From contig JAJXZE010000002.1 in assembly GCA_021780195.1 (NCBI GenBank), forward strand, positions 20,220 through 84,219: DNA of 64,000 nucleotides, written 5' to 3'. The position numbers were made by a program, and so were the translations under genes. Source of the DNA: a bacterium (GTDB taxonomy: Bacteria; Patescibacteriota; Minisyncoccia; UBA6257; 2-01-FULL-56-20). The stretch's first letter is position 1; each line of letters starts with the position of its first letter. The notes beneath the pieces are model-generated. The model saw only the letters and a program-made list of their open reading frames with translations, was not told the DNA's origin and made no database searches. Positions 2,508 through 55,868 of the stretch are shown here, one piece after another.

Positions 2508-4208
2508 TTATTTCGCCTGTTCCGCTGGTTCCGGCCAGACGATCTCTCCCGTGGCGCCTTCCACCTCTTCCCAGGTGGTGAGGCCCGTGAGGACCTTGAG
2601 GATCCCGTCTTCCTGCATGGTGACCATCTTCTGCCGCGCGGCCACCTTGCGGAGTGCCACCTCGGACGCCTCCTTCAGAATGGTGGTCTCGAGATCCGGC
2701 CCTCCCTCCAAAAATTCGAAGATGCCTCTGCGTCCTTTATAGCCGATGCCGCTGCACTTTGTACAGCCCACCGCTGTGTACAACGCGTACGAAGCGTATT
2801 TTGTTTTGTCGACCCGCGCGGGAAGCGCGGCAAGGAATTTTTCGATCCTCTCCTTCGTCGCCTCGTCAGGTTCGATTTTTTTCTTGCAGTCGGGGCAGAG
2901 CACGCGCACGAGACGCTGGGCGATCACGAGCGAAAGTGCGGGGCCGATGCTCGTCGTCTTCACGCCGAGGTCGATGAGACGCGGCACCGCGCCCACCGCG
3001 TCGTTCGTGTGGAGCGTGGAAAGCACGAGGTGTCCCGTGAGGGACGCCTGGAGCGCGATGTCCGCCGTGTCGAGATCGCGCACCTCGCCCACGAGGATCA
3101 CGTCCGGGTCCTGCCGCACGATGGCGCGGAGCCCGTTCGCGAAGGTGTAATTCGCCTCGTTGTCCACTTGTGTCTGCTCGATCCCCTCGATGCGGTACTC
3201 GATTGGATCCTCAAGCGTGATGATCTTGAGTCCCGGATCGTTGATGGTCCGGAGGAAGGCGTAGAGGGTCGTCGTCTTGCCGGATCCGGTGGGGCCGGTG
3301 TTCAGGATAAGACCGTTCGGCCGTCCGAGCTGCTTTTTCACGATCGCGAGGTTATCCTCGCGGAGGCCGAGGTCCCCGAGGCTCACGAGCGTGGCCCGCG
3401 GGTCGAGGATCCTCATCACGACCGTTTCGCCGAATTCCGCCGGGATGACCGAGACGCGCATCTCGATCTCGACGTCCGTGAGTCCGACCGTAAAGCGGCC
3501 GTCCTGTGCCTCGTCGCGCACGTTCAGCTTCATCTTCGAAAGGAGCTTGATGCGTGAAACGAATGAGCGGTACAGGACGAGCGGCACATCCGTCACGATA
3601 TCGTGCAAGACGCCGTCGACGCGGAAGCGGAATTTTGCCGTGCGCTCCCCCGCTTCGGCGTGGATGTCCGACGCCCGCACGGCAAACGCGCCCGCAAGGA
3701 TGATCTCGATCACGGTCGTGGGCGACGCCGTCGCGGGATCGAGCGACGCGAACTCTTTTTTAATGCTGTCGAAGCTCGTGAGCCGCCCGCGGAGCTCGGT
3801 CATCCTCGCCTCGGACACTTTCACCTTGCCCGTGATGTCCTCCGCGGCCCGTTTCACGAACTTGTAATATTTCCACGCCGCCTCGAGCCCCGATGCGGAG
3901 GCCACGAAAAGCTTCGGGTCGTATCCTTCCGCCGCGAGCTCCTTCACGAGTTCCTTTGTGGCGCCAAAATCAGGGTTCTCGGCGATAACCGCGATCTTCT
4001 TTCCCTGCAGTTCCACGCCGGCCGCCTTCGCGGCGCGGGCCTTCTCTTCCGGAATCACGCGCACGGCATCCAGAGACACCGGCATCTTTGAAAGGTCGGC
4101 GTACGAAAGCCCTGCCTGCGCCGCAAGGCGCACCGCCGCGCGTTCCTCTCCCTCGCGATGGAGCTTGGCAAGCTTTTCTTTCAGGTCGTTCGGTCCGAGA
4201 TCAGCCAT
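2508..4208 (-). CDS. pilB: type II secretion / type IV pilus assembly ATPase (GspE/PilB family)
   Basis: Walker A GPTGSGKTTTL, N-terminal GSPII_E_N-like domain, and a C-terminal CxxC...CxxC zinc motif. The likely start is the internal ATG at 4208 (MADLGPNDL); the called ORF extends to 4304. Confidence 0.85.
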   Translation of the reverse strand: MADLGPNDLKEKLAKLHREGEERAAVRLAAQAGLSYADLSKMPVSLDAVRVIPEEKARAAKAAGVELQGKKIAVIAENPDFGATKELVKELAAEGYDPKLFVASASGLEAAWKYYKFVKRAAEDITGKVKVSEARMTELRGRLTSFDSIKKEFASLDPATASPTTVIEIILAGAFAVRASDIHAEAGERTAKFRFRVDGVLHDIVTDVPLVLYRSFVSRIKLLSKMKLNVRDEAQDGRFTVGLTDVEIEMRVSVIPAEFGETVVMRILDPRATLVSLGDLGLREDNLAIVKKQLGRPNGLILNTGPTGSGKTTTLYAFLRTINDPGLKIITLEDPIEYRIEGIEQTQVDNEANYTFANGLRAIVRQDPDVILVGEVRDLDTADIALQASLTGHLVLSTLHTNDAVGAVPRLIDLGVKTTSIGPALSLVIAQRLVRVLCPDCKKKIEPDEATKERIEKFLAALPARVDKTKYASYALYTAVGCTKCSGIGYKGRRGIFEFLEGGPDLETTILKEASEVALRKVAARQKMVTMQEDGILKVLTGLTTWEEVEGATGEIVWPEPAEQAK

Positions 4209-38165: not shown

Positions 38166-38897
38166 ATGATTTTCATGCCCCATTTTTTCGTGAAAAGCTT
38201 TGAGGAGGATCATGCGACGAAGACGCTCGTCGGGACGAAGAAGAAGACCTTTCAAACCCTCGATAATATCCTGATGAAGGGGATTCTGCGCCCGAATACG
38301 AAGAGCTTCGGCCAAAAGCGACGCCTTAGTACGACTGTTTTGAGCGGCCGCTATACGAAGACCTACCGGCCGCAAGGGCTGATTTTCAGGACGAAAGACC
38401 GGCCGGATTACGTGATCCCGTTTGATCTTGTTCTGCTTTCCGATGCGGGGAAAATCGTCGTACATTACTATCGCATCAAAGATAATCTGCACGTCTATTA
38501 CAACCACAAGCTCATCAATGGCTATCAGGGATTCATCTTTAAGAGTATCTCTCTGATGGAAAAGAAATTCGTCTCTCCGGAGGGAGCATGGAAAGCGGTC
38601 AATGCATTCCGCGTTGCACACGGCTATCCAGCGTTGCCTCCGTCGAAGCGCCGCCTCGCCGCCTATAACGAAGTCGTATTCCAGAAGCCGATAAAAGTCG
38701 TTCCCGTGGCGCTCTTCGGCTACCGCGCGGAAACGAGGCGGCTTGCCCGCAAATATGGACTCCGCTATTTCAGATCGGCGGGGGAGTTTTATAAACGGAT
38801 ACGCGGCGGCGCGTCCAAAGGACAGGAGGGGCGTTGTTTTTCTTTCGCTGGAGCGGGCAAGGGGAATCGAACCCCTGTCATCAGCTTGGAAAGCTGA
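38166..38897 (+). CDS. hypothetical protein in a low-GC segment; 3' end overlaps tRNA-Gly on the opposite strand
   Basis: Long ORF, but AT-rich with atypical composition. The overlap with the tRNA casts doubt on its C-terminus. Confidence 0.35.
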   Translation: MIFMPHFFVKSFEEDHATKTLVGTKKKTFQTLDNILMKGILRPNTKSFGQKRRLSTTVLSGRYTKTYRPQGLIFRTKDRPDYVIPFDLVLLSDAGKIVVHYYRIKDNLHVYYNHKLINGYQGFIFKSISLMEKKFVSPEGAWKAVNAFRVAHGYPALPPSKRRLAAYNEVVFQKPIKVVPVALFGYRAETRRLARKYGLRYFRSAGEFYKRIRGGASKGQEGRCFSFAGAGKGNRTPVISLES

Positions 38898-38922
38898 GGT
38901 AATGCCATTATACGATGCCCGC
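38849..38922 (-). tRNA. tRNA-Gly (anticodon UCC), CCA encoded
   Basis: Folds as a cloverleaf with anticodon loop TTTCCAA. Nearly identical to the canonical bacterial tRNA-Gly(UCC). Confidence 0.9.
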
Positions 38923-39679: not shown

Positions 39680-39754
39680 GGGCATGTAGCTCAATGGCAG
39701 AGCAGACGTCTTATACACGTCCGGTTCCAGGTTCGAGTCCTGGCATGCCCACCA
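39680..39754 (+). tRNA. tRNA with anticodon UAU (tRNA-Ile2-like, would decode AUA), CCA encoded
   Basis: Acceptor GGGCATG/CATGCCC, D arm GCTC/GAGC, anticodon stem GACGT/ACGTC with loop CTTATAC, and T arm CCAGG-TTCGAGT-CCTGG. Confidence 0.75.
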
Positions 39755-42946: not shown

Positions 42947-43020
42947 GGTGCCTCTAGCTTAATGGTAAAGCTCCGCTCTGTGGCAGCGGCAATACGGGTC
43001 CGATTCCCGTGAGGCACCCA
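42947..43020 (+). tRNA. tRNA-His (anticodon GUG) with encoded G-1
   Basis: Eight-bp acceptor including G-1:C73. Anticodon loop CTGTGGC. The T-loop TCCGATT is slightly unusual. Confidence 0.7.
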
Positions 43021-46526: not shown

Positions 46527-49349
46527 TTATGCTCCCGTTGACGCGACCCCGCCCTTATTTTTTTCTCCCGGCTTTTCGAAAACACAGATTGTACGGCCCG
46601 CATCATCAAAATAATGGGTAAGAATATACCCATTTCGCAGGGGCGACCAATCCGGAGAGTCGCCGGAGGGGTATTCTCTTGTCATGATGCCCTCTTCGGG
46701 GTTTTGATTTTTTTTGATGGCAGAAACAATTTCCCGACCACTGATTTTTTTGGAAGCGAGTCCCTTGTCGGCGTCGGGAGACAGCTCGATCTTTAAGCTC
46801 GGTACCCCCTTGTAATCATATGCTTCCGTGGCGACAAAGCCGCTCTCGATGTATCTCTTGGTGACGGGCGCCATCGGATTGCAATCGGCGAAAATAGGAA
46901 CCCCGAGGGCACGCTCCTCCCGGAGGGCTTGGTCAAGCATCGTTTCCCCCACTTTGCCTCGTCCATACGCCGGACTCGTGTTGAAAGACCCGAAATAGAT
47001 AGAATCAAGCCTGCCGTTTTTGAATGTGTGGTCGAAGCGGCAGAACGCCGCAACGGCCCCTTTGTGCTTGAAGAGATAGAATCTGGTGTCGGGATTATCG
47101 AGAGATGCATCAAATGACTGGATGAGGGCGTCGATGAATTTTTCGGGATATTCCGTCCGATTGCCATAATTCTTTTGATATATACGGCGCATCTCTTCGA
47201 GAAGCGGAGGATCTTTCTTGAGGTCGGCTCCCGAGGAGACGTTGAATTCGGCGAGTCCGAGGTCGCGAAGGTCGGCGGGAAGCTTGCCGGATCCCTGTTT
47301 TAATGCCTTTATGGTGCTGGTGAAAAGCACGACTTCCGCTTTTATGTCGTCCAGGCGCTCGAAAAGATCACGAGTGTCAGTGCCGAGCTCGGTGGCGTCG
47401 ACAAAGTGCTCTATCAGCTCGTTGCCGCGCCTCAGGAGGTTGCGGGCCACCTGGTTCACGAGTTCTTCGTCCGTCTTTTGTCCCGATGAAAAATTGTCCC
47501 GTAAATATTCCCGAACCTTCTCAATCACCGCCGCTATCTCTGCATATTTTTCAAAAAGCTTCCGGGCGTCATCGCGATCAAGGATATTCGCCAGGCGGAT
47601 GATCGCGTCGCCGTAGTCAGTCCCGCCTTCGGAGCATGCAAGGAAGGAGGTGGCAAAGTTCTTTATATAGATCCGTTCGGGATGGAGGTCGGGCTCCGGT
47701 CCCCCCCGGTGCCACTCAAGGTGGATGGAGGCGTCGTCCGCGATCTTGTCGAGCCCGGCCTTGAGGCGCTGGATTTCATCCACGTTCCGTCCGTCGATAT
47801 AATGGAGGAATTGCACCTGCGCAGAGAGGGGAAAATCGGCCATATCTATCAACAGATCGTCCTCCAGTACTTTGCGCATACTGAGTCGCATCAGGTACTG
47901 GTAGTGATATTCCGCTTCTTCCGACACCGTGCCCGCGGGGAAGAGGCGTCGCAGATATTCCTCCTTGCTGAGTATGGGCGGTGGCACGCTCTTGCCCGCC
48001 TCGAACGTTACGTATTCGGCATTCCTGCGAAGGATCTCTCCCGCCACGAAGGGATGTATGCCATCGACGTCAATACGCTCGAGGTCGAAAAAAAACTTTC
48101 GGCCGGCATCATGCAACTTGCGGTCGAAGGACCACAAGTCCTCCAGTTGCCGCAATGAACCATACCTCGGCGAACCTATTGCAAGCGCGTCATAAATCGC
48201 CTCATCCGCAGGATCATTCCGCGCTATATAGTGCCCCTCGTCAATTCCGGGTTCCTCGTCGCCGTGCGAGATGTCGAAGATGCTTTCAAGGCGCCCGGCG
48301 CGATATTGGCCGAGATAGCCGGGGGCGATAGGAAGGACCGCGTTTGCGATGGGGTTGCCCTCGGTAATGCCGTAGCGCATTCTCAGATTATACGACTCGA
48401 ACATGCGCCTGTAGGTATATATGGTCTTATTCGAGGCACCCCCCGCGATACCGGAGACGACGCCTTCTTCCATGTCGTATCGGTCGTATGAATGGACGGC
48501 TTTGTAGACGTCATCAAGATGCGCCCCGAGAAGATAATTTTCGACCCTTTCCGTGGCATCCTTCGCGAGCTCTTCCACAAATTTCAGCGCAAACCGATTG
48601 TAAGAATTGCCATATTCGTCCAGCGGCTCCTCGTCCGGGGCGATATTCTGCAGGGCCGTAATATCAGCGCTGAAAAAATCTATGATTTTGTGCGCGAGTA
48701 AGTTGCCTTGCGGGTCGTTCGCGCGAATGAGGGCGTCAAGTTGGTTTTCCACCCGCAGGGGCAGGGCGTCTTCGGCCGCCTCCATCTTTTTTGCAAAGTC
48801 CTCCCGCGGGAACAGGGAGTTTCCCAGTCCGTCAATTTCCCCCAGTAATGCGATGATCGGGAACGAGGCAGGCATTCCCTTCGAAGAGATACCCCGCGCA
48901 ACAGCGTCTTCGACGATGTCGATGCGTCGTTGCCGTTCTTCGGGAGTCCCGCCCCGAAGTACAAAATCCACAATTTGAGATCCTTTCTCCGGCCGGGGAG
49001 AAGTATTTCCGGCTTCACAAAGGGCATCGATGGCCGATCCTAGATTCTGCTCCGAAATGGTTTCCGCCGTCGCCCCGCGCGCAATGAGCACATCGGCAAT
49101 CTCATCTGCGTCGCCGACCGGAAGCGGATCGTTGGAGAGAAAGCCGTCCGGCAAGGGGCGCGCGGGTGGAAACTCTTTATTGATCGAAGCATATTCCTGT
49201 CTCTGACGGAAAAGAGGAAGGCCTGGGACAGCCCGGAGCGAATTCACCAATTCCTTCCTGCGGCGCGCTTGCTCATGCGATGACCGTTTTTTGTTCGCGC
49301 CGTATTCCGCGTCAGCGCTCAATTCCACTGTTGATCCTTCTTTGCGCAT
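46527..49349 (-). CDS. large hypothetical cytoplasmic protein (940 aa) with putative C-terminal GNAT-like acetyltransferase fold
   Basis: The C-terminal segment FYLFKHKGAVAAFCRF...GRGKVGETMLDQAL is GNAT-like. GC lower than the surrounding genome, judged by eye. Confidence 0.45.
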   Translation of the reverse strand: MRKEGSTVELSADAEYGANKKRSSHEQARRRKELVNSLRAVPGLPLFRQRQEYASINKEFPPARPLPDGFLSNDPLPVGDADEIADVLIARGATAETISEQNLGSAIDALCEAGNTSPRPEKGSQIVDFVLRGGTPEERQRRIDIVEDAVARGISSKGMPASFPIIALLGEIDGLGNSLFPREDFAKKMEAAEDALPLRVENQLDALIRANDPQGNLLAHKIIDFFSADITALQNIAPDEEPLDEYGNSYNRFALKFVEELAKDATERVENYLLGAHLDDVYKAVHSYDRYDMEEGVVSGIAGGASNKTIYTYRRMFESYNLRMRYGITEGNPIANAVLPIAPGYLGQYRAGRLESIFDISHGDEEPGIDEGHYIARNDPADEAIYDALAIGSPRYGSLRQLEDLWSFDRKLHDAGRKFFFDLERIDVDGIHPFVAGEILRRNAEYVTFEAGKSVPPPILSKEEYLRRLFPAGTVSEEAEYHYQYLMRLSMRKVLEDDLLIDMADFPLSAQVQFLHYIDGRNVDEIQRLKAGLDKIADDASIHLEWHRGGPEPDLHPERIYIKNFATSFLACSEGGTDYGDAIIRLANILDRDDARKLFEKYAEIAAVIEKVREYLRDNFSSGQKTDEELVNQVARNLLRRGNELIEHFVDATELGTDTRDLFERLDDIKAEVVLFTSTIKALKQGSGKLPADLRDLGLAEFNVSSGADLKKDPPLLEEMRRIYQKNYGNRTEYPEKFIDALIQSFDASLDNPDTRFYLFKHKGAVAAFCRFDHTFKNGRLDSIYFGSFNTSPAYGRGKVGETMLDQALREERALGVPIFADCNPMAPVTKRYIESGFVATEAYDYKGVPSLKIELSPDADKGLASKKISGREIVSAIKKNQNPEEGIMTREYPSGDSPDWSPLRNGYILTHYFDDAGRTICVFEKPGEKNKGGVASTGA

Positions 49350-49353
49350 AGTA

Positions 49354-50184
49354 TTACGCGGATCGTGGGGTTGGCTCCTTTATCTGCTCCGCGAGTCCCC
49401 AGAGATACTCGAAGAGATATTTATGCATGGCGTAAATGTGCGGGTCAGCAAGAATGACGCCGATCATTCTTTCCGGCCGCAGAGTGACGTAAGCGATTTT
49501 TCCGTCATAAATATTCATGATGCTTTCGAATGGAGGGGCGTCCACTCGTATGAGGCGGCTCTCGGTCACGGCGAGGTGGTAATCCTTCAGGTACTCCCGC
49601 GTCGCCGGGGTATCAAGAAGGATGCCGCGCCGTTTGACTCCCAGTTTTTCCCTCTTGGCCACATAAGCGTTATTGAGGGGGCCGATATTTTTCATCACCG
49701 CCTCGATATCCGCATATGAACAGATCTCAGTCCGCGATATAAGCGTATCGTCCAGGACCTTTTTAATGCCCTCAAGGCCTTCGTAGAATAGAACACCGGG
49801 TTTTCCGGATGAAAGGTTGAAATCGGAAACCAGCGAGTTCAGAACTCCCTCGAGTGCGACGTGGGCATCGGCGGCCGCACGCGATTTCTGGTCAGCCAGA
49901 TCTCTTAGTTTCAATGGGTGGGCCGGTTCAAATTGAGCCACCGATCCCGCCTTGTCCCGTCGGACGGCCAGGCCCCCTGCTTCAAGTTCCCCGAGGATCT
50001 TGTAGGTAAGGCCGCGCTTTAGTCCTGCGTAGCTACTGATTTTTCCCGCTGGAAGCAAGCCATGCTTTACTAGGATCTCGTAGAGCTTGGCCTGGTCTGG
50101 AGAAAGTCCCGCCCTAGAAAGGGTCTGTTCGTACATGGCTTCATTGCAATAATAACATAAAATTAACGCTTTGGAAAGTGTCAC
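49354..50184 (-). CDS. TrmB-family transcriptional regulator (winged HTH + C-terminal sensor domain)
   Basis: N-terminal LSPDQAKLYEILVKHGLLPAGKISSYAGLKRGLTYKILGELEAGGLAVR matches the TrmB helix-turn-helix. Confidence 0.7.
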   Translation of the reverse strand: MTLSKALILCYYCNEAMYEQTLSRAGLSPDQAKLYEILVKHGLLPAGKISSYAGLKRGLTYKILGELEAGGLAVRRDKAGSVAQFEPAHPLKLRDLADQKSRAAADAHVALEGVLNSLVSDFNLSSGKPGVLFYEGLEGIKKVLDDTLISRTEICSYADIEAVMKNIGPLNNAYVAKREKLGVKRRGILLDTPATREYLKDYHLAVTESRLIRVDAPPFESIMNIYDGKIAYVTLRPERMIGVILADPHIYAMHKYLFEYLWGLAEQIKEPTPRSA

Positions 50185-50317
50185 GGGGCGTAAAAAGGGC
50201 TTAATCTTTTTTATTTATCGTCATAAAATTATGACAATTAATGCTATAAAACTCGGCCATTTGTATCATGAAAATACTTATTTCTGCAGAAATTTAGAAA
50301 GATGCGCCACAAGAACT

Positions 50318-50350
50318 TGACAGTTTTCATTGCATATGGTAATATATCAC
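50318..50350 (+). promoter_or_regulatory. strong sigma70-like promoter with extended -10 (TTGACA, 17 nt spacer, TGgTAATAT) pointing into the ORF-free structured region
   Basis: Read directly. Divergent from the trmB-like gene. The palindrome GTCATA-AAAT-TATGAC sits at 50225-50240. Confidence 0.55.
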
Positions 50351-50356
50351 CAGCAC

Positions 50357-51084
50357 GATGACAGAGGGGGTGGTTCCGGAGGGTGCGCGGCTGGCAGGGA
50401 GGGGAATGGATTGAAGGGATCTATTCCTCTCCCCGAGAGCAAGAGGAGAGGCCTAAGGAGATCCGGGGAAGAGATCTTCATCAGCTCTTTGTAAAACGAC
50501 GGTCGCTCGCGGATATCAGTCTCGAGGAGAGAGTTATCTCGCAGGGCGATTCAGTCAAGCATTCGTCGCGGCGCGTGTCATCGCTTCAAAAGAGCGAGAG
50601 CGGTAGCGGGGCCAGGGAGTCGACGACTCTGCCTCCAATGCCGCGCTGATCAAATCGATCCACAGCGCCACCACGTTTCTTTTTGTGAGATACGTTGCCG
50701 GCGAAACGGTCCAACCCGCCGTTTCTCGGCAAAAATCTCCCCGAAAGAGGAGAGTGATATGGTTCCCTTAGTAAGGAGATCGACTGGAGAGCAAGCTCGG
50801 GTCCGGTTGGTCTCCAGAAACCTCCTTACTAACTCGATCGCAATCTGCGAAAACCGAGGAGAGAGCAGATTGTTAGAGGAGAGAGTAAGGAAGTACCTTG
50901 AAAATTGAATAGCCAAAGTAGTGCTTATAGCGATTATACGTTCGCGGATTATTACACGGGAGCGTCCGAGCTATGGCATTTTGACTTTGAAGTTCCTCCC
51001 GAGTTTGGTTGTCAACTGAGGTTCTGATTTTTGGTGCTTCAGTTGGCAATCAAACTCAAATACGAAACGAAAGGAGGGAGTCAA
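50357..51084 (+). ncRNA. ~0.7-kb ORF-poor, highly structured transcribed leader / candidate large ncRNA with five GAGGAGAG repeats and one 49-aa sORF (50759-50908)
   Basis: Nested hairpins, for example 50768-50833 (TTAGTAAGGAG...CTCCTTACTAA enclosing CTGGAGA...TCTCCAG). GAGGAGAG at 50443, 50524, 50748, 50847, 50870. No ORF over 60 aa except overlapping antisense artefacts. Confidence 0.45.
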
Positions 51085-51555
51085 ATGAACTATTTGTTGG
51101 GGTCGGGTGAGGCGGTCATTGATCGTTTCAACTCGCACGTTCACGACGGAGTGGCGCGGCTCCTACCCGCGGCGCTGCTTCGAGTTCAGTCACAGGGTAG
51201 GAAGTTCCTCATCGAGGAAGTTGACTTTGGTCAACCAGTCGGTGAGACGATCTGCGTTCCAACCGGGCCAGGGGACGAGATCGTATACGCAATTCGGCCC
51301 AAGAGATTCGGGCACTCGCGGTTCGTCAAAAATCGCAAGCCCGAGCCATGTGGTGCGGTGACGATCATTCTCAAAAGGGATGAATTTGATCCGTACTATG
51401 TCCTAATTACGGCCTTCGTAGGCCATAAACCTGAGCCCGAGCCATGGGATCGCAATTCCAATGGTTTGAGTCGGGACTTCTGGAGTTCTCACGCCCTCAT
51501 CTGGGGGTGCGAGGAAGTCATGCACAACACAGTAACCACGGAATGTCCGTGGTAA
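51085..51555 (+). CDS. hypothetical protein (156 aa), island gene 1
   Basis: Strong ribosome-binding site AAAGGAGGG 7 nt upstream. No recognisable domain. Confidence 0.6.
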   Translation: MNYLLGSGEAVIDRFNSHVHDGVARLLPAALLRVQSQGRKFLIEEVDFGQPVGETICVPTGPGDEIVYAIRPKRFGHSRFVKNRKPEPCGAVTIILKRDEFDPYYVLITAFVGHKPEPEPWDRNSNGLSRDFWSSHALIWGCEEVMHNTVTTECPW

Positions 51556-51583
51556 CAACAGCAACAGAGAAAGGAGAAACGAA

Positions 51584-51874
51584 ATGAAAATCAAGAGGTT
51601 GTTTTTGGCGCTGTGCGCCAAGAGGTTGGTTGTCGACATCATCACCGCTGACAACAGAGCGTTTCAGTTGAGCGGTGACCGACGGTTCGAGGGGATGTAT
51701 GAGCGGCTATTCCATGCCGACTCTCACCCCACTCGCAGAAACGTTGGAGAAGGTGAGATGCAGTGGGCTTTCGACCAGGCCAGAGAAATCCGGCTTTGGA
51801 TGGGCCCCACGGAGTATCGCACGATCACAACAACTGAGCTCGAATCCGAGCTCACGCCATTCCCGGTTCGATAG
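51584..51874 (+). CDS. hypothetical protein (96 aa), island gene 2
   Basis: Ribosome-binding site GAAAGGAGAAAC. Confidence 0.55.
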   Translation: MKIKRLFLALCAKRLVVDIITADNRAFQLSGDRRFEGMYERLFHADSHPTRRNVGEGEMQWAFDQAREIRLWMGPTEYRTITTTELESELTPFPVR

Positions 51875-51888
51875 AAAAGGAGGAGACG

Positions 51889-52338
51889 ATGAGTCACATC
51901 AGAAAGGAGACCGTGCGTGGATTCGATACCGTCCACCCGGTTGTTCTGCAAGAAGGTATCAAGGTGGCCTGTCAACTTCTCTCGCTTCAGGGCCTGAAGG
52001 TGACTGATCATGTCTTTGATTGGAGTGGCCATAAGGTCACCGAGTACAACGGCATGAATGTTATCTGCGGCTTGGACGCACAGGGGTCGGCCTCGTCCCA
52101 CAAGTTTGCGGGACTGGGGCTCGCAGTCGACCAGAAGGGCAAGCTCGCGATTGTCGGAGATTTTTATTACTCCGAGCAAGAGCAGCGAGCCCAGGAACTC
52201 AAGAAGATGATCGAAACAGTTCTTGGCGGAGCCTGCTACTTTGCGGCACGGGCGATGATCGCCACGGCCAAGGGGCAGCGGACTCAGATCAAGATCAACC
52301 AAGAAACCCGCCAGCTTCAGCTGGTGGTGCAGATGTGA
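51889..52338 (+). CDS. hypothetical protein (149 aa), island gene 3
   Basis: Ribosome-binding site AAAGGAGGAG. Confidence 0.55.
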   Translation: MSHIRKETVRGFDTVHPVVLQEGIKVACQLLSLQGLKVTDHVFDWSGHKVTEYNGMNVICGLDAQGSASSHKFAGLGLAVDQKGKLAIVGDFYYSEQEQRAQELKKMIETVLGGACYFAARAMIATAKGQRTQIKINQETRQLQLVVQM

Positions 52339-52357
52339 GATGAGAAAGGAGGACGTC

Positions 52358-52573
52358 ATGGCAAGAGAAGTCATAACGATCGGCGGAGACGGAGGCGTCG
52401 GCTCTGAAATGTTCGGGTTCAAAGGCAAGAGCTGCCTCAAAGCGGCGGCTGAGATTGCCGAAGAGCTCAAGCGGCTCGGAGTGGTTGCCGACATCGGCGG
52501 AATCAGCATGAAAGAGGATGCCGAGGTCGTGACCGAGACGCAGCAAGCGGCAATGAAGGTCGAAAGGGGATGA
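52358..52573 (+). CDS. small hypothetical protein (71 aa) immediately upstream of the radical SAM gene
   Basis: Ribosome-binding site GAAAGGAGGAC. Gly-rich N-terminus ITIGGDGGVGSEMFGFKGKSC. Confidence 0.45.
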   Translation: MAREVITIGGDGGVGSEMFGFKGKSCLKAAAEIAEELKRLGVVADIGGISMKEDAEVVTETQQAAMKVERG

Positions 52574-53205
52574 AAGTTATGGTTATGCCCCGCGTAAACC
52601 TTCACGACTTCGTCCCCCGGTCTCGTGCAAACGGGCCGGGGGAGCGAGCGGTGGTTTGGGTGCAGGGTTGCCCTCGGCGTTGTCCGGGGTGTTTCAATCC
52701 CGAAACCTTACCATTCGTTACCAAGAATTGGGTAACCGTTGATGATCTTGAGAGCCGAATCTTGGCTCAAAACAACATTGACGGCGTCACCTTTTCTGGT
52801 GGCGAACCGTTCGCACATGCACAGGCACTTGCCGAGTTGGCGAAAAAGCTGCGCAAGTATGGATTGACGGTGGTGTGTTACACCGGCTACACGCTCAAGC
52901 AACTTAAGGCCGGAAATCGCGAGGACTGGAATGCTCTTCTTTCAGAAGTAGACCTTCTGATTGACGGGCCATTCATCCAAGAGCAGCGGTGCCATGAACC
53001 ATATCGCGGCTCGGCAAACCAAATTCTTCACCTTCTTACCGATCGCATCCGATTGGAGGAAGTTCATGGGCAAAGCCAGACAGCAGAGTTCACACTCGGC
53101 GCTGGCGGAGACATCCAGCAAACTGGATTCCCTGAACTCCCCGACATGGATGCGGTCATGGGAGAAATCTCAGGGATCCTCAAACAGACAGGAGGATCGA
53201 AATGA
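52570..53205 (+). CDS. NrdG-like radical SAM glycyl-radical activating enzyme (4Fe-4S, CxxxCxxC)
   Basis: NGPGERAVVWVQGCPRRCPGCFNPE, GVTFSGGEPF, VVCYTGYTLKQL and LIDGPF...YRGSANQILHLL align with NrdG family hallmarks. Confidence 0.8.
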   Translation: MKVMVMPRVNLHDFVPRSRANGPGERAVVWVQGCPRRCPGCFNPETLPFVTKNWVTVDDLESRILAQNNIDGVTFSGGEPFAHAQALAELAKKLRKYGLTVVCYTGYTLKQLKAGNREDWNALLSEVDLLIDGPFIQEQRCHEPYRGSANQILHLLTDRIRLEEVHGQSQTAEFTLGAGGDIQQTGFPELPDMDAVMGEISGILKQTGGSK

Positions 53206-55010
53206 AAGATACGAAGAATTGTGCCGTAACGGCACACAGTTGGTTTGAGTCTTTTGCTCGTGCCTACGCGGCCGAGCTCGGGTACGTGTTTCTTATCTCC
53301 GGCAACATCGCAGATTTATTCCCCTTGGGGAGCGAGTTCGTGACCTTGCGCCAGTTCTGGGCAAGGCAGTTGGATGGCAGAGACATTGTGGTGTTCTGGG
53401 ATAAGTCGGCGGGGTTCGCCTTTGCTGACGAAATCCTCGGCACCAAACCGGCCGAAGGGCAACTCCCGATGAGGGAGAAGTTCAAGGCCGCAGTCGGACT
53501 GAATCAGCAGCAAGGTAATGGCGGCAGCAATGCCTCTAACTTGCTGGCTGGCTTGGCTGGATTGGGCGGCGGCAACAACGGCGCGCTTCCCACTGATCCT
53601 GAGCAAGCTTTCCAGCTTCTGGAAAAATTGCTCTCACAGGGCAAGCCAGAAGATCGGAAGGCGGCGGTAGTCGTGGAGTACATCGAAAGTGTTATCCCCG
53701 AAAACGACTACGGGTCAGTTCCGGCAGTAACGCTCCAACGGTGGGCGTCTCTGGACAGCCCGCTCAAGGGTACCGGCAACCCGGTTATCCTGATCGAGCG
53801 GAATCCAGAACGGGCCTCTAGTGTAGTGAAGCATGACGATTCGTCGGTAGTGCGGATCCACATTCCTCGTCCGAACAAAGAGGAGTTCGGAACATTCATC
53901 CGTCACAGCCTGAAGGTCAACGGCGTTAAGCTCGCCGAAGGCCTGACGGTGGACGTGGCGGCCAACCTGTCAGCCGGGCTACGTTGCAAGGACTTTGACG
54001 ACTTTGTCATGAAGTCGCTCGAGTCCGGCGACCCAATCAACGACACCTTTATTTGGCAGAAAAAGGTGGAGTTGATTGAGAAGCAGTCCGGCGGGGTCCT
54101 GCAGGTGGTAAGACCCAAGCATGGGTTCGAATCCATCGGCGGGCTGGAGCACGTCAAGAGCGCCCTACGGGTGCAGATTGACAAGCTTCGCAGTGGTTCC
54201 AGAACCACTGATAAGGGTTGGATTCTGATGGGGCCTCCGGGAACGGGGAAAACCATCATCGCCGAGGCGCTGGCGAAAGAGTCGGGTGTCAATTTCGTGA
54301 TGCTCGGCAACGTCCTCTCCAAGTATGTGGGTGACTCGGAGAGAAACATGAATCTCGCTATGGAAATTGCCCGAGCCATGGCGCCCACAATCATCTTCGT
54401 TGACGAAGCCGCTGAGGCAATCGGAAACGGAGAGGGCTACAACGGGGATAGCGGCGTCAGCAATCGTGTAAGGGGGAAACTCCAGAACGTGATGGGTGAC
54501 GACTCTGCCCGGGGCCAGCTGTTCTTTATGCTGGCAACGAACTATCCCAATCGTCTGGCACCGGCGATTCTGCGTGAGGGAAGGATGGACAAGCGGGTGC
54601 CACTCTTGGTTCCTGACAGCACCGGGAGAAATGAGATTCTCAAAGCGCTTTGCCTAAAGTATGGCATTGCGTCCGAGGGAATCGACTTTTCACCTGCCCT
54701 TGCCAGTACGGAAGGGTGGACAGGTGCTGAGCTCGAGGCGCTTTTACTCCGAGCGAAGCAATTTGCAGAGGAGGAGGAAGTGCCGGTCGAGACCCGTCAT
54801 TTCGATGAAGCGGTAAAGGATTACATCCCGAGCCGCGACCAGCAGGCGTTCGACCTGATGACCGCGTTGGCCATCAGGTACACGAACTCCAGACGGCTTC
54901 TGCCCGAGGCCTATCGGTCTGCGAATGGAGAAATTCAGAAGCGGATCGATGAGCTCGAGCCTCAGGTGGCCGAGCGCGAAGCAAGGCGCCGGGGCGGGCT
55001 GAAGCTCTAG
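53202..55010 (+). CDS. AAA+ ATPase (single classical AAA domain, ~280-aa N-terminal unknown domain), C-terminus RRRGGLKL
   Basis: Walker [15 protein letters not shown], Walker B IIFVDEA, second region of homology ATNYPNRLAPAILREGRMD. Confidence 0.85.
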   Translation: MKDTKNCAVTAHSWFESFARAYAAELGYVFLISGNIADLFPLGSEFVTLRQFWARQLDGRDIVVFWDKSAGFAFADEILGTKPAEGQLPMREKFKAAVGLNQQQGNGGSNASNLLAGLAGLGGGNNGALPTDPEQAFQLLEKLLSQGKPEDRKAAVVVEYIESVIPENDYGSVPAVTLQRWASLDSPLKGTGNPVILIERNPERASSVVKHDDSSVVRIHIPRPNKEEFGTFIRHSLKVNGVKLAEGLTVDVAANLSAGLRCKDFDDFVMKSLESGDPINDTFIWQKKVELIEKQSGGVLQVVRPKHGFESIGGLEHVKSALRVQIDKLRSGSRTTDKGWILMGPPGTGKTIIAEALAKESGVNFVMLGNVLSKYVGDSERNMNLAMEIARAMAPTIIFVDEAAEAIGNGEGYNGDSGVSNRVRGKLQNVMGDDSARGQLFFMLATNYPNRLAPAILREGRMDKRVPLLVPDSTGRNEILKALCLKYGIASEGIDFSPALASTEGWTGAELEALLLRAKQFAEEEEVPVETRHFDEAVKDYIPSRDQQAFDLMTALAIRYTNSRRLLPEAYRSANGEIQKRIDELEPQVAEREARRRGGLKL

Positions 55011-55868
55011 TCCGAAACACCAACACAGAAACGAAAAGAATGGAGGTGATTCCAATGTAGTTCTTATGGCGAGAGCCACGGAGAACCCGAATCTTTCCGC
55101 GGGATGGAGTGTGCGGGGAAGATCGGAGGCGGTCTTCGGTAGGGCTGCTTCTTAAAACATGACCCGGCGATGCATCAGGCCGAAGTCTGATGTAGGTTCC
55201 AGCGGCAGATGTTTGTCGGCTATCAGGGATATCCGGCAGACAGTTGGAACAAAGGGGTTTGTACATTTGCGGGTTCATTGGTGTGCGAGCTTCTCTCCCT
55301 GAAATGGAGAAACGAACCAAAAGCGAAGTTAACCTTCAACCGGCGGTTGGCAATCATCCGTCGAGCGTTAACCCCAAGTGGAATTAGCGGTGCTTAATAA
55401 AGGCCACAGGCCTAATGAGCCGCTAAATCCAGCAAGGTCGCAGAGTTCCCTTCGGGGGATAAATAAATTGCATAAGCCGAGAAATCGGAATGCGGATCGC
55501 GCTTGACTTAAAGCGCGAGAAGCGAGTGGCCAGTCAATCGGCCGTCCGATTTGTCCAGTTGCGAGCAACATTGCAGTTGGACTAGGCGAAGATTGAACGC
55601 GCTCATCCGCGAAACTTCAAATTCGGCCTAGGGTTCGATGAGGGGTTCTATAAAATTCTTGACTTTGGCCAAGTCTTGGCGGCACTTGCTTTGCCGTAAC
55701 CTCGGGCTAATCGCAAGTTAGCTCGAGGAAAGCAAGAAGGGTTTAGGGTTTACAGTCCGGGCGAGTTGACGCACTCAACTCGCCCCTTCTTCCGAACTCA
55801 TCATCATGGTGATGATGAGTTCGGAGAGAGGGTTCATTGACAACCAAATACGAAAGGAGGAAAGCAGA
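55011..55868 (+). ncRNA. ~0.85-kb ORF-free structured region (candidate large ncRNA or processed intercistronic RNA)
   Basis: Numerous hairpins and long-range pairings, for example 55759-55785 (10-bp stem), 55792-55824 (15-bp perfect stem), and TGGAATTAGCGGTGC...GAGCCGCTAAATCCA. No coding potential. Confidence 0.45.

Follow-up and report, generated by a model that had tools for sequence, protein, structure and literature searches.

We analysed a gene-free region in a 64,000-nt stretch of a Patescibacteria genome (contig JAJXZE010000002.1, positions 20,220 to 84,219, forward strand; this whole stretch is referred to as the window). The region is bounded by the gene for a TrmB-like regulator on the minus strand (49354-50136) and by the ATG at 51085, with which an operon on the plus strand begins. 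Its longest open reading frames (ORFs) are two of 88 aa, in agreement with an initial annotation of the locus, which had seen no large ORF between the promoter and the first gene of the island. One of the two (50383-50649) was rejected as a gene because its alignment with two related loci, L165 and L171, contains indels of 1, 7 and 8 nt. Here we propose that the gap of about 0.7 kb is the 5′ leader of the operon mRNA, more precisely a regulated structured leader in which repeated purine motifs serve as sites for RNA-RNA pairing, and we assign this reading a probability of roughly 0.6. The leader belongs to a conserved, modular and highly structured RNA family that has no match in Rfam 15. For comparison we gathered about 170 related loci, designated by L-numbers, of which 80 came from species-representative genomes, 80 from metagenomes and the rest from several closer contigs and the neighbourhoods of the closest TrmB-like homologues. 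The locus comprises the following features:

49354-50136, minus strand: gene for the TrmB-like winged-helix regulator (PF01978, 31.3 bits against a cutoff of 25.6)
50224-50241, no strand assigned: operator-like palindrome CGTCA-N8-TGACA (inverted repeat)
50317-50345, plus strand: near-consensus sigma-70 leader promoter TTGACA-17-TAATAT with an upstream TG (promoter scan)
50352-51084, plus strand: structured leader RNA, about 733 nt (start predicted from the -10 element)
50443-50450, plus strand: motif copy 1 (AAGAGGAGAGG), conserved in L165 and L171
50524-50533, plus strand: motif copy 2 (CGAGGAGAGAGU), invariant in L165 and L171
50681-50747, plus strand: hairpin A, variant copy (covariance model R1, 24.4 bits, E = 0.005)
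50747-50754, plus strand: motif copy 3 (AAGAGGAGAGU), at the mosaic junction
50770-50832, plus strand: hairpin A, canonical copy (R1, 60.3 bits, E = 1e-12)
50841-50872, plus strand: stem-loop SL-M with an 8-bp covarying stem (fold and comparison with relatives)
50856-50865, plus strand: motif copy 4, on the 3′ side of the SL-M loop
50876-50885, plus strand: motif copy 5 (UUAGAGGAGAGAGUAAGG), conserved in L002, L032, L039, L087, L162 and L163
50889-50999, plus strand: box GUACCUUGAAAAUUGAAUAG and module B (covariance model R2, 126.5 bits)
50914-50919/50984-50989, 50928-50931/50970-50973 and 50938-50946/50957-50965, plus strand: helices Pa, Pb and Pc of module B
50993-51000, plus strand: UUCCUCCC, anti-Shine-Dalgarno-like, its CCUCC conserved in 11 of 13 relatives
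51001-51057, plus strand: long hairpin Pd between the anti-Shine-Dalgarno element and the ribosome-binding site (inverted repeat; changes on both sides at 12 of 19 pairs)
51073-51087, plus strand: Shine-Dalgarno sequence GGAGGG and ATG of the 156-aa gene
51085-55010, plus strand: first six operon genes, encoding proteins of 156, 96 and 149 aa, a DUF2997-like protein (sub-threshold match), an NrdG-like radical SAM protein and an AAA+ ATPase

The non-coding region 5′ of the 156-aa gene is conserved at the nucleotide level, as revealed by blastn and iterated nhmmer searches. A profile seeded on a complete relative has 1010 columns and spans about 1.0-1.16 kb each in L004, L087 and L162; within the family the leaders range from 0.7 to 1.1 kb. 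The strong promoter reported in the initial annotation was recovered, and the leaders of the relatives begin at a perfect (12/12) TTGACA-17-TATAAT promoter that coincides with column 1 of the profile. It is therefore reasonable to assume that the whole region is transcribed as a leader. On the plus strand the leader regions of the relatives contain no long ORF, and their alignments contain frame-breaking indels. The fold of the whole leader is far more stable than that of shuffled sequence (z = -7.2), which, together with the covarying hairpins described below and the conservation throughout the family, bears out the earlier suggestion of a structured regulatory or non-coding RNA leader. A search of the window with the 4227 models of Rfam 15 at the gathering threshold returned three tRNAs only, and for the leader nothing but noise was obtained at E <= 10. 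The leaders of five full-length relatives at E <= 0.1 and those of 20 loci at the gathering threshold likewise gave no match, the hits in the relatives' loci being limited to hammerheads and tRNAs. In literature searches we found no description of this leader RNA. The window scan detected no intrinsic terminator between the leader and the first gene.

The nested hairpins that had been placed at 50768-50833 are present as inverted repeats (50768-50778/50822-50832 and 50784-50794/50807-50817) and constitute hairpin A, which in its canonical form measures about 60 nt. Across 24 distinct sequences 93.5% of the cells are paired, compared with 40-52% when the partners are slid, and changes on both sides occur at 15 of the 18 pairs, a value that none of 500 shuffles reached. 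Model R1 finds hairpin A about 40 times, with a few of these hits representing the same contig in both collections. In every locus that could be oriented by the 156-aa gene the hits lie 5′ of this gene, and the top hit is always on the gene's strand. The variant copy is nearly invariant in L165 and L171 and is predicted in the minimum-energy fold. For SL-M, at least eight different stem sequences were found in relatives with the pairing kept, and in most of them the loop contains motif copy 4. G-U pairs are frequent in all helices and every covariance-model hit falls on one strand; the structure thus belongs to the RNA of the plus-strand transcript. Extra genes have been inserted after hairpin A in L006, L020, L030, L082 and L097.

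Downstream of SL-M lies the box GUACCUUGAAAAUUGAAUAG (50893-50912; family consensus GUNCUUUGAMAAUUGAAUAG), followed by module B, a rod of three helices whose loops GCGAUUAYACG, CGGAUUAUUAYACGG and UCCGAGC are nearly invariant. As in an aptamer-like domain, Pa, Pb and Pc are supported by covariation in 13 distinct sequences; when Pd is included, both sides have changed at 17 of 37 pairs, and 97.3% of the cells are paired as opposed to 33-43% with the partners slid. The comparative test for covariation that had been recommended initially therefore speaks in favour of hairpin A, SL-M, the Pa/Pb/Pc set and Pd alike. In the minimum-energy fold, UUCCUCC of the UUCCUCCC region pairs with GGAGGGA across Pd. 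We also considered the box as an internal promoter (TTGAAA/TTGACA at 50898), but no relative has a -10 element at a spacing of 16-21 nt and the promoter scan makes no call here, so that the box was treated as RNA; in L097 a hammerhead stands directly 5′ of it. Hairpins of 33 nt and more have been inserted in the apical loop of module B (L087 1035-1067; L169, minus strand, about 2950-3050), as is common where a structured RNA has a variable region.

The second hallmark of the leader is its purine motif. The sequence GAGGAGAG occurs 13 times in the window, where 3.0 copies are expected, and five of these are on the plus strand of the leader, compared with an expectation of 0.12 from dinucleotide shuffles of the 733 nt; none of 2000 shuffles reached five. 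The five repeats of the initial annotation thus stand, three of them with positions corrected by 1-9 nt (50747, 50856 and 50876 in place of 50748, 50847 and 50870), and so does the enrichment over the composition of the island, the absence of which had been named as grounds for dismissing them. The leaders of the relatives carry four to five copies each of a 12-mer, AGAGGAGAGAGU: we counted 53 in 22 kb of leader sequence (2.4 per kb), to which, outside the leaders, the loci concerned and the window together add just nine on this strand (about 0.05 per kb). The repeated purine motif is a conserved hallmark of the leader family. The spacings in the window are irregular (81, 223, 109 and 20 nt) and Tandem Repeats Finder reported no tandem repeats; an RNA built of regular direct repeats, such as a type III antitoxin, a CRISPR or a TIGR-like array, was accordingly rejected. 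The motif nearest to the ribosome-binding site ends at 50885, and the Shine-Dalgarno sequence starts at 51073; the two do not overlap.

Two further elements were noted in the 5′ parts of related leaders. One is a highly stable hairpin, about 70 nt long (-30 to -41 kcal/mol), that relatives carry about 200 nt past the leader start (L087 160-250, L162 965-1060, L004 2330-2420, L003 3590-3700). It looks like a terminator or attenuator, and most copies are followed by a U-run. One of its arms holds UCUCUUCUCU, a sequence complementary to the motif, and the unit is missing from the window. L162 also contains, at 134-852, four tandem perfect or near-perfect sigma-70 promoters and a separate duplicate of the leader's 5′ unit (profile columns 1-377).

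A comparison of the two halves of the window leader with their closest relatives reveals its hybrid nature. From 50767 to 51084 its identity amounts to 94% with L163 and 88% with L162; upstream of this point these two loci are unrelated to the window, yet carry a full-length leader of the family. The stretch 50423-50754, on the other hand, has its counterparts in L165 (84% identity) and L171 (78%), which are leaders beside the closest TrmB homologues and precede cargo genes unrelated to those of the window. Similarity with L165 and L171 stops at about 50754 and that with L163 and L162 begins at 50767, i.e. at the 5′ edge of hairpin A. The window leader is thus a mosaic of a TrmB-proximal half and a cargo-proximal half. 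This origin accounts for the presence of two hairpin A copies, as each half brought its own, the variant copy belonging to the TrmB-proximal half. Since homologous leader halves are found beside unrelated cargo, it also becomes clear that homologous leaders precede different cargo genes.

The divergent regulator described in the initial annotation was retained: homologues of the TrmB-like protein bear the TrmB name in their sources, and such a homologue stands divergently 5′ of the leader in 33 other fetched loci. The palindrome reported between the two is likewise present, with arms at 50213-50226/50229-50242 and the core GTCATAAAATTATGAC at 50225-50240, and its GTCA-N8-TGAC type is conserved next to the leaders. 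In 23 homologous TrmB/leader intergenic regions, 15 sites of the form GTCA-N7-9-TGAC were counted, compared with 0.15 in shuffles, and in several cases the site overlaps the leader promoter at its -35 element or its start. Because of this enrichment and the overlap with promoter elements, the palindrome is very probably an operator. A degenerate pair of operator half-sites, TATCA-N9-TGACA, may be read from the sequence at 50345-50363, where it would overlap the predicted transcription start. The TrmB-like protein might thus act as a repressor of the leader promoter. Directly 3′ of the regulator gene and on the same strand lies a gene (46527-49349, minus strand) for a 940-aa protein with a weak GNAT-domain match. 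Homologues of this protein were found in 12 fetched loci, and in many loci large proteins adjoin the TrmB homologues, the weak GNAT match recurring in several of these proteins.

While tracing the remaining GAGGAGAG hits in the window, we found a ribozyme and a second conserved RNA 3′ of the last called gene of the island and on the same strand:

58674-58923, plus strand: conserved 3′ RNA of about 250 nt (nhmmer E = 5e-56; homologues in L002, L003, L165, L167, L009 and L049)
58684-58736, plus strand: type III hammerhead ribozyme with core CUGAUGAG and CGAAA; cleavage predicted at 58690/58691 (+/- 1)
58733-58761, plus strand: promoter-like site with an extended -10 element (TGATATAAT), inside a window-specific insertion after the hammerhead
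58861-58875, plus strand: anti-motif AAAUCUCUCUCCUCU, a 15-mer exactly reverse-complementary to the leader motif
58997-59025, plus strand: intrinsic terminator CCGCCUUCUUAAGGCGG followed by a U-run, which ends the 3′ RNA

The hammerhead has the core, the NUH cleavage site and the three helices expected of RF00008 (stem I of 7 bp, stem II of 4 bp and stem III of 6 bp, as read from the nucleotides), and its stems covary with those of eight homologues (L002, L003, two copies in L009, L167, L050, L164 and L097). Scores with the RF00008 model amount to 24.1 bits for the window, as a partial match, and to 35.7-44.3 bits for the relatives, all below the gathering score of 48.5 bits. No hammerhead was found in L135. 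Hammerheads also lie between modules in other loci (L097 1308-1370; L009 2316-2370 and 3912-3967; L164 1909-1965; L050 2591-2645), directly 5′ of the 156-aa gene region in L097 and L009 and at the leader start in L164. This suggests that ribozymes define RNA ends throughout the system. A reversed leader unit at 58.8 kb was considered and rejected: on the minus strand the site gives no match to the leader profile, and the hammerhead itself reads along the plus strand.

The anti-motif AAAUCUCUCUCCUCU is invariant in the window, L002, L003 and L049, with variants in L165 and L009, so that complementarity between the 3′ RNA and the leader is conserved. Each of the five leader motifs could form 10-13 contiguous base pairs with it (-17 to -22.5 kcal/mol). 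In the window, L165 and L167, homologues of the 3′ RNA are found 3′ of unrelated cargo genes.

From these observations a mechanism may be sketched. Transcription from the leader promoter would be controlled by the TrmB-like protein. Module B, with its invariant internal loops, may be a sensor domain for a ligand or a protein, and by governing the pairing of UUCCUCCC with the ribosome-binding site across Pd it could set the translation of the first gene. The purine motifs would be the places where the 3′ RNA pairs through its pyrimidine anti-motif. This RNA might be set free by hammerhead cleavage or transcribed from a promoter of its own, and the pairing could remodel or bridge the leader and in this way form a feedback loop. 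Taken as a whole, this would amount to a hitherto unrecognised RNA-centred regulatory cassette composed of a TrmB-like repressor, a leader of 0.7-1.1 kb with four to five identical 12-mers, exchangeable cargo and a hammerhead-released 3′ RNA that pairs with the 12-mers, so that the ends of the transcript communicate through multivalent RNA-RNA contacts and the leader offers a homology platform for cargo swaps. We put forward this integrated scheme only tentatively.

It is important to note that several observations weigh against the interpretation of a regulated leader with RNA-RNA pairing sites. The transcription start, read-through to 58.7 kb and cleavage by the ribozyme are predictions. Between the six operon genes and the next called gene there is a geneless gap of 795 nt (55011-55805) with no ORF above 67 aa, which renders a single transcript across the island uncertain; in whole-window runs this gap had no match to R1, R2, the leader profile or the 3′ RNA profile. 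As the motif and the anti-motif are both invariant, their pairing can show no covariation, and the same limit applies to the CCUCC/GGAGG pairing. There are five motifs for a single anti-motif, the predicted fold of the 3′ RNA already engages part of the anti-motif in base pairs, and among the loci with enough downstream flank the anti-motif RNA was found in seven distinct ones (the window and six others). A whole-molecule duplexfold prediction of leader and 3′ RNA was uninformative, shuffled controls scoring the same. The motifs have a mean unpaired probability of 0.45 compared with 0.36 for the leaders overall. Their exposure is thus not consistent, and the idea that they always lie in loops was rejected on account of this varying structural context. 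Finally, Pa and Pc vary little, and the model of module B is based on 13 distinct sequences only.

The serious rival to RNA-RNA pairing is a protein ligand. The motifs may be sites for a multimeric RNA-binding protein that resembles CsrA/RsmE, Hfq or TRAP or is a product of the operon, for instance the basic, all-beta 156-aa protein, and the leader would then be a regulated target or a sponge. There being four to five invariant GGA-containing 12-mers per leader is well compatible with this, as is the placement of one copy in the loop of the covarying SL-M with a second one 20 nt downstream. A hairpin-loop site followed by another some 20 nt on is the geometry used by CsrA dimers. Moreover, the 156-aa gene is the commonest first cargo, and the confident model of its product matches only OB-fold proteins in the PDB, none of them significantly. 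On the other hand, a search of 1.04 Mb of sequence (window and related loci) turned up neither a CsrA nor an Hfq homologue, the ribosome-binding site is free of motif overlap, and an invariant full 12-mer exceeds the typical site of such proteins. The suggestion of CsrA sites or decoy ribosome-binding sites in the initial annotation thus gained no specific support. Since the leaders of L165 and L171 keep the motifs with unrelated cargo, the 156-aa protein is not an obligatory partner, and a protein ligand would leave the conserved exact complement downstream unexplained. On balance we consider a protein partner less probable than RNA-RNA pairing. An alternative that we regard as unlikely is that the element is primarily a large non-coding RNA in its own right, which acts as a scaffold or forms a multimeric assembly of the size of ROOL, GOLLD or OLE; it would merely be co-transcribed with the genes, and hammerheads would cut the modules apart. 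Its length of 0.7-1.1 kb, the many conserved helices and the occurrence of the same leader type before unrelated genes would fit, and so would the very stable hairpin some 200 nt from the start in relatives, which in most of those folded precedes a U-run, the duplicated 5′ unit of L162 and the hammerheads that separate modules in L097, L009 and L164. Yet the leader is always 5′ of genes and in the same orientation, and it ends in the anti-Shine-Dalgarno element, hairpin and ribosome-binding site fused to the first gene; in the window neither a terminator nor a hammerhead intervenes between leader and gene.

Two other explanations appear far less probable. According to one, the motifs are decoy ribosome-binding sites, of which one drives a 49-aa small ORF (50759-50908) as a leader peptide. 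GAGGAG does resemble a Shine-Dalgarno sequence and, mechanically, the ORF exists, with its ATG 5 nt past motif copy 3. The ORF proposed in the initial annotation is not upheld, however, by L163 (94% identical), L162 and L087, in which the same frame lacks the ATG and is interrupted by a stop that arises from the conserved UAACC in the loop of hairpin A. It also overlaps a hairpin with compensatory changes at the RNA level, and the operon genes use AAGGAGG as their ribosome-binding site, so that we give this explanation very little credence. Least credible of all is that the hairpin and motif region is a DNA recombination site for the exchange of cargo cassettes, with the RNA-like conservation being secondary. 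The mosaic junction falls exactly at the 5′ edge of hairpin A, different cargo follows homologous leaders, genes have been inserted after hairpin A in the five loci named above, and tRNA genes lie near the elements of L164, L165 and L135. The neighbouring genes that were scanned, however, include no integrase or recombinase, the abundance of G-U pairs and the strict strandedness fit RNA, and ordinary homologous recombination between paralogous leaders suffices for the mosaic.

Turning to the cargo, the gene order of the window operon is the same in L163, and the set is largely common to L162, L017 and L026. The 156-aa protein (51085-51555, plus strand) is widespread, highly conserved and hypothetical. 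Its source-named homologues are all from Patescibacteria. The homologues have identities of 56%-83%. Its all-beta AlphaFold model has a predicted local distance difference test score (pLDDT) of 92, and neither the PDB nor BFVD yielded a significant structural match. The protein matches only PHROG family phrog_23674 (function unknown). Despite this hit the element is not evidently phage-borne, because the module B pattern, the hairpin A pattern and the 156-aa protein were all unmatched in IMG/VR viral contigs. Three tRNA genes are located 7-12 kb upstream of the locus (38852-38922, minus strand; 39680-39751 and 42948-43018, plus strand), and tRNA genes also adjoin the related elements in L165, L164 and L135.

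To our knowledge, few regulators are known from Patescibacteria, whose genomes measure about 1 Mb, and hardly any non-coding RNAs have been described in them. That such a lineage devotes about 1 kb to a conserved structured RNA ahead of operons of unknown function deserves attention, since conserved bacterial RNAs above 500 nt of unknown function are rare and have repeatedly opened new biology. The locus offers parts that lend themselves to experiments: a candidate sensor domain, a motif with a complementary partner, ribozymes that would set RNA ends, and a transcription factor with a recognisable operator. It also provides a handle on the widespread 156-aa family, for which a confident predicted structure has no detectable structural relative.

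Taken singly, a leader, an anti-Shine-Dalgarno element, a hammerhead and antisense pairing are all known; what appears to be new is their combination, the size, and the putative multivalent motif/anti-motif design. The 3′ part of the leader resembles riboswitches and protein-responsive leaders with an anti-Shine-Dalgarno platform, in that a multi-helix domain with invariant internal loops and covarying stems stands directly 5′ of a gene and is followed by a CCUCC that could sequester the ribosome-binding site. In contrast to these, the RNA lacks a known ligand or protein partner and matches no Rfam family, and the domain occupies no more than roughly the final 200 nt of a leader of 0.7-1.1 kb in which repeated motifs and other conserved domains also occur. 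With regard to the predicted contact between the two ends, pairing of the 5′ and 3′ untranslated regions, as in icaR of S. aureus, and regulatory small RNAs derived from 3′ ends offer themselves for comparison. As in those systems, a pyrimidine, anti-Shine-Dalgarno-like sequence at the 3′ end of the locus complements purine, Shine-Dalgarno-like sequences in the 5′ leader, but here the target sites number five and the actual ribosome-binding site is not among them, a hammerhead borders the 3′ RNA, and the pairing is predicted.

The RNAs CsrB and RsmZ and the leaders regulated by CsrA likewise have multiple GGA motifs, of which a hairpin loop holds at least one, with a further copy about 20 nt away. 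The motif described here differs in being an invariant 12-mer instead of A(N)GGA, is not consistently looped and leaves the ribosome-binding site free, and no CsrA gene was found nearby. The ribozyme shares the CUGAUGAG and CGAAA core with the type III hammerheads of RF00008, and its three stems covary among nine homologues; the cleavage triplet in the window is UUU instead of GUC, and the scores stay below the gathering score. Lastly, the family is reminiscent of OLE, GOLLD, ROOL and raiA, with which it has in common an unusual length, many conserved helices and a narrow lineage. It matches none of them in sequence or structure, and differs from them in that the RNA is fused to an mRNA and stands beside a dedicated transcription factor.

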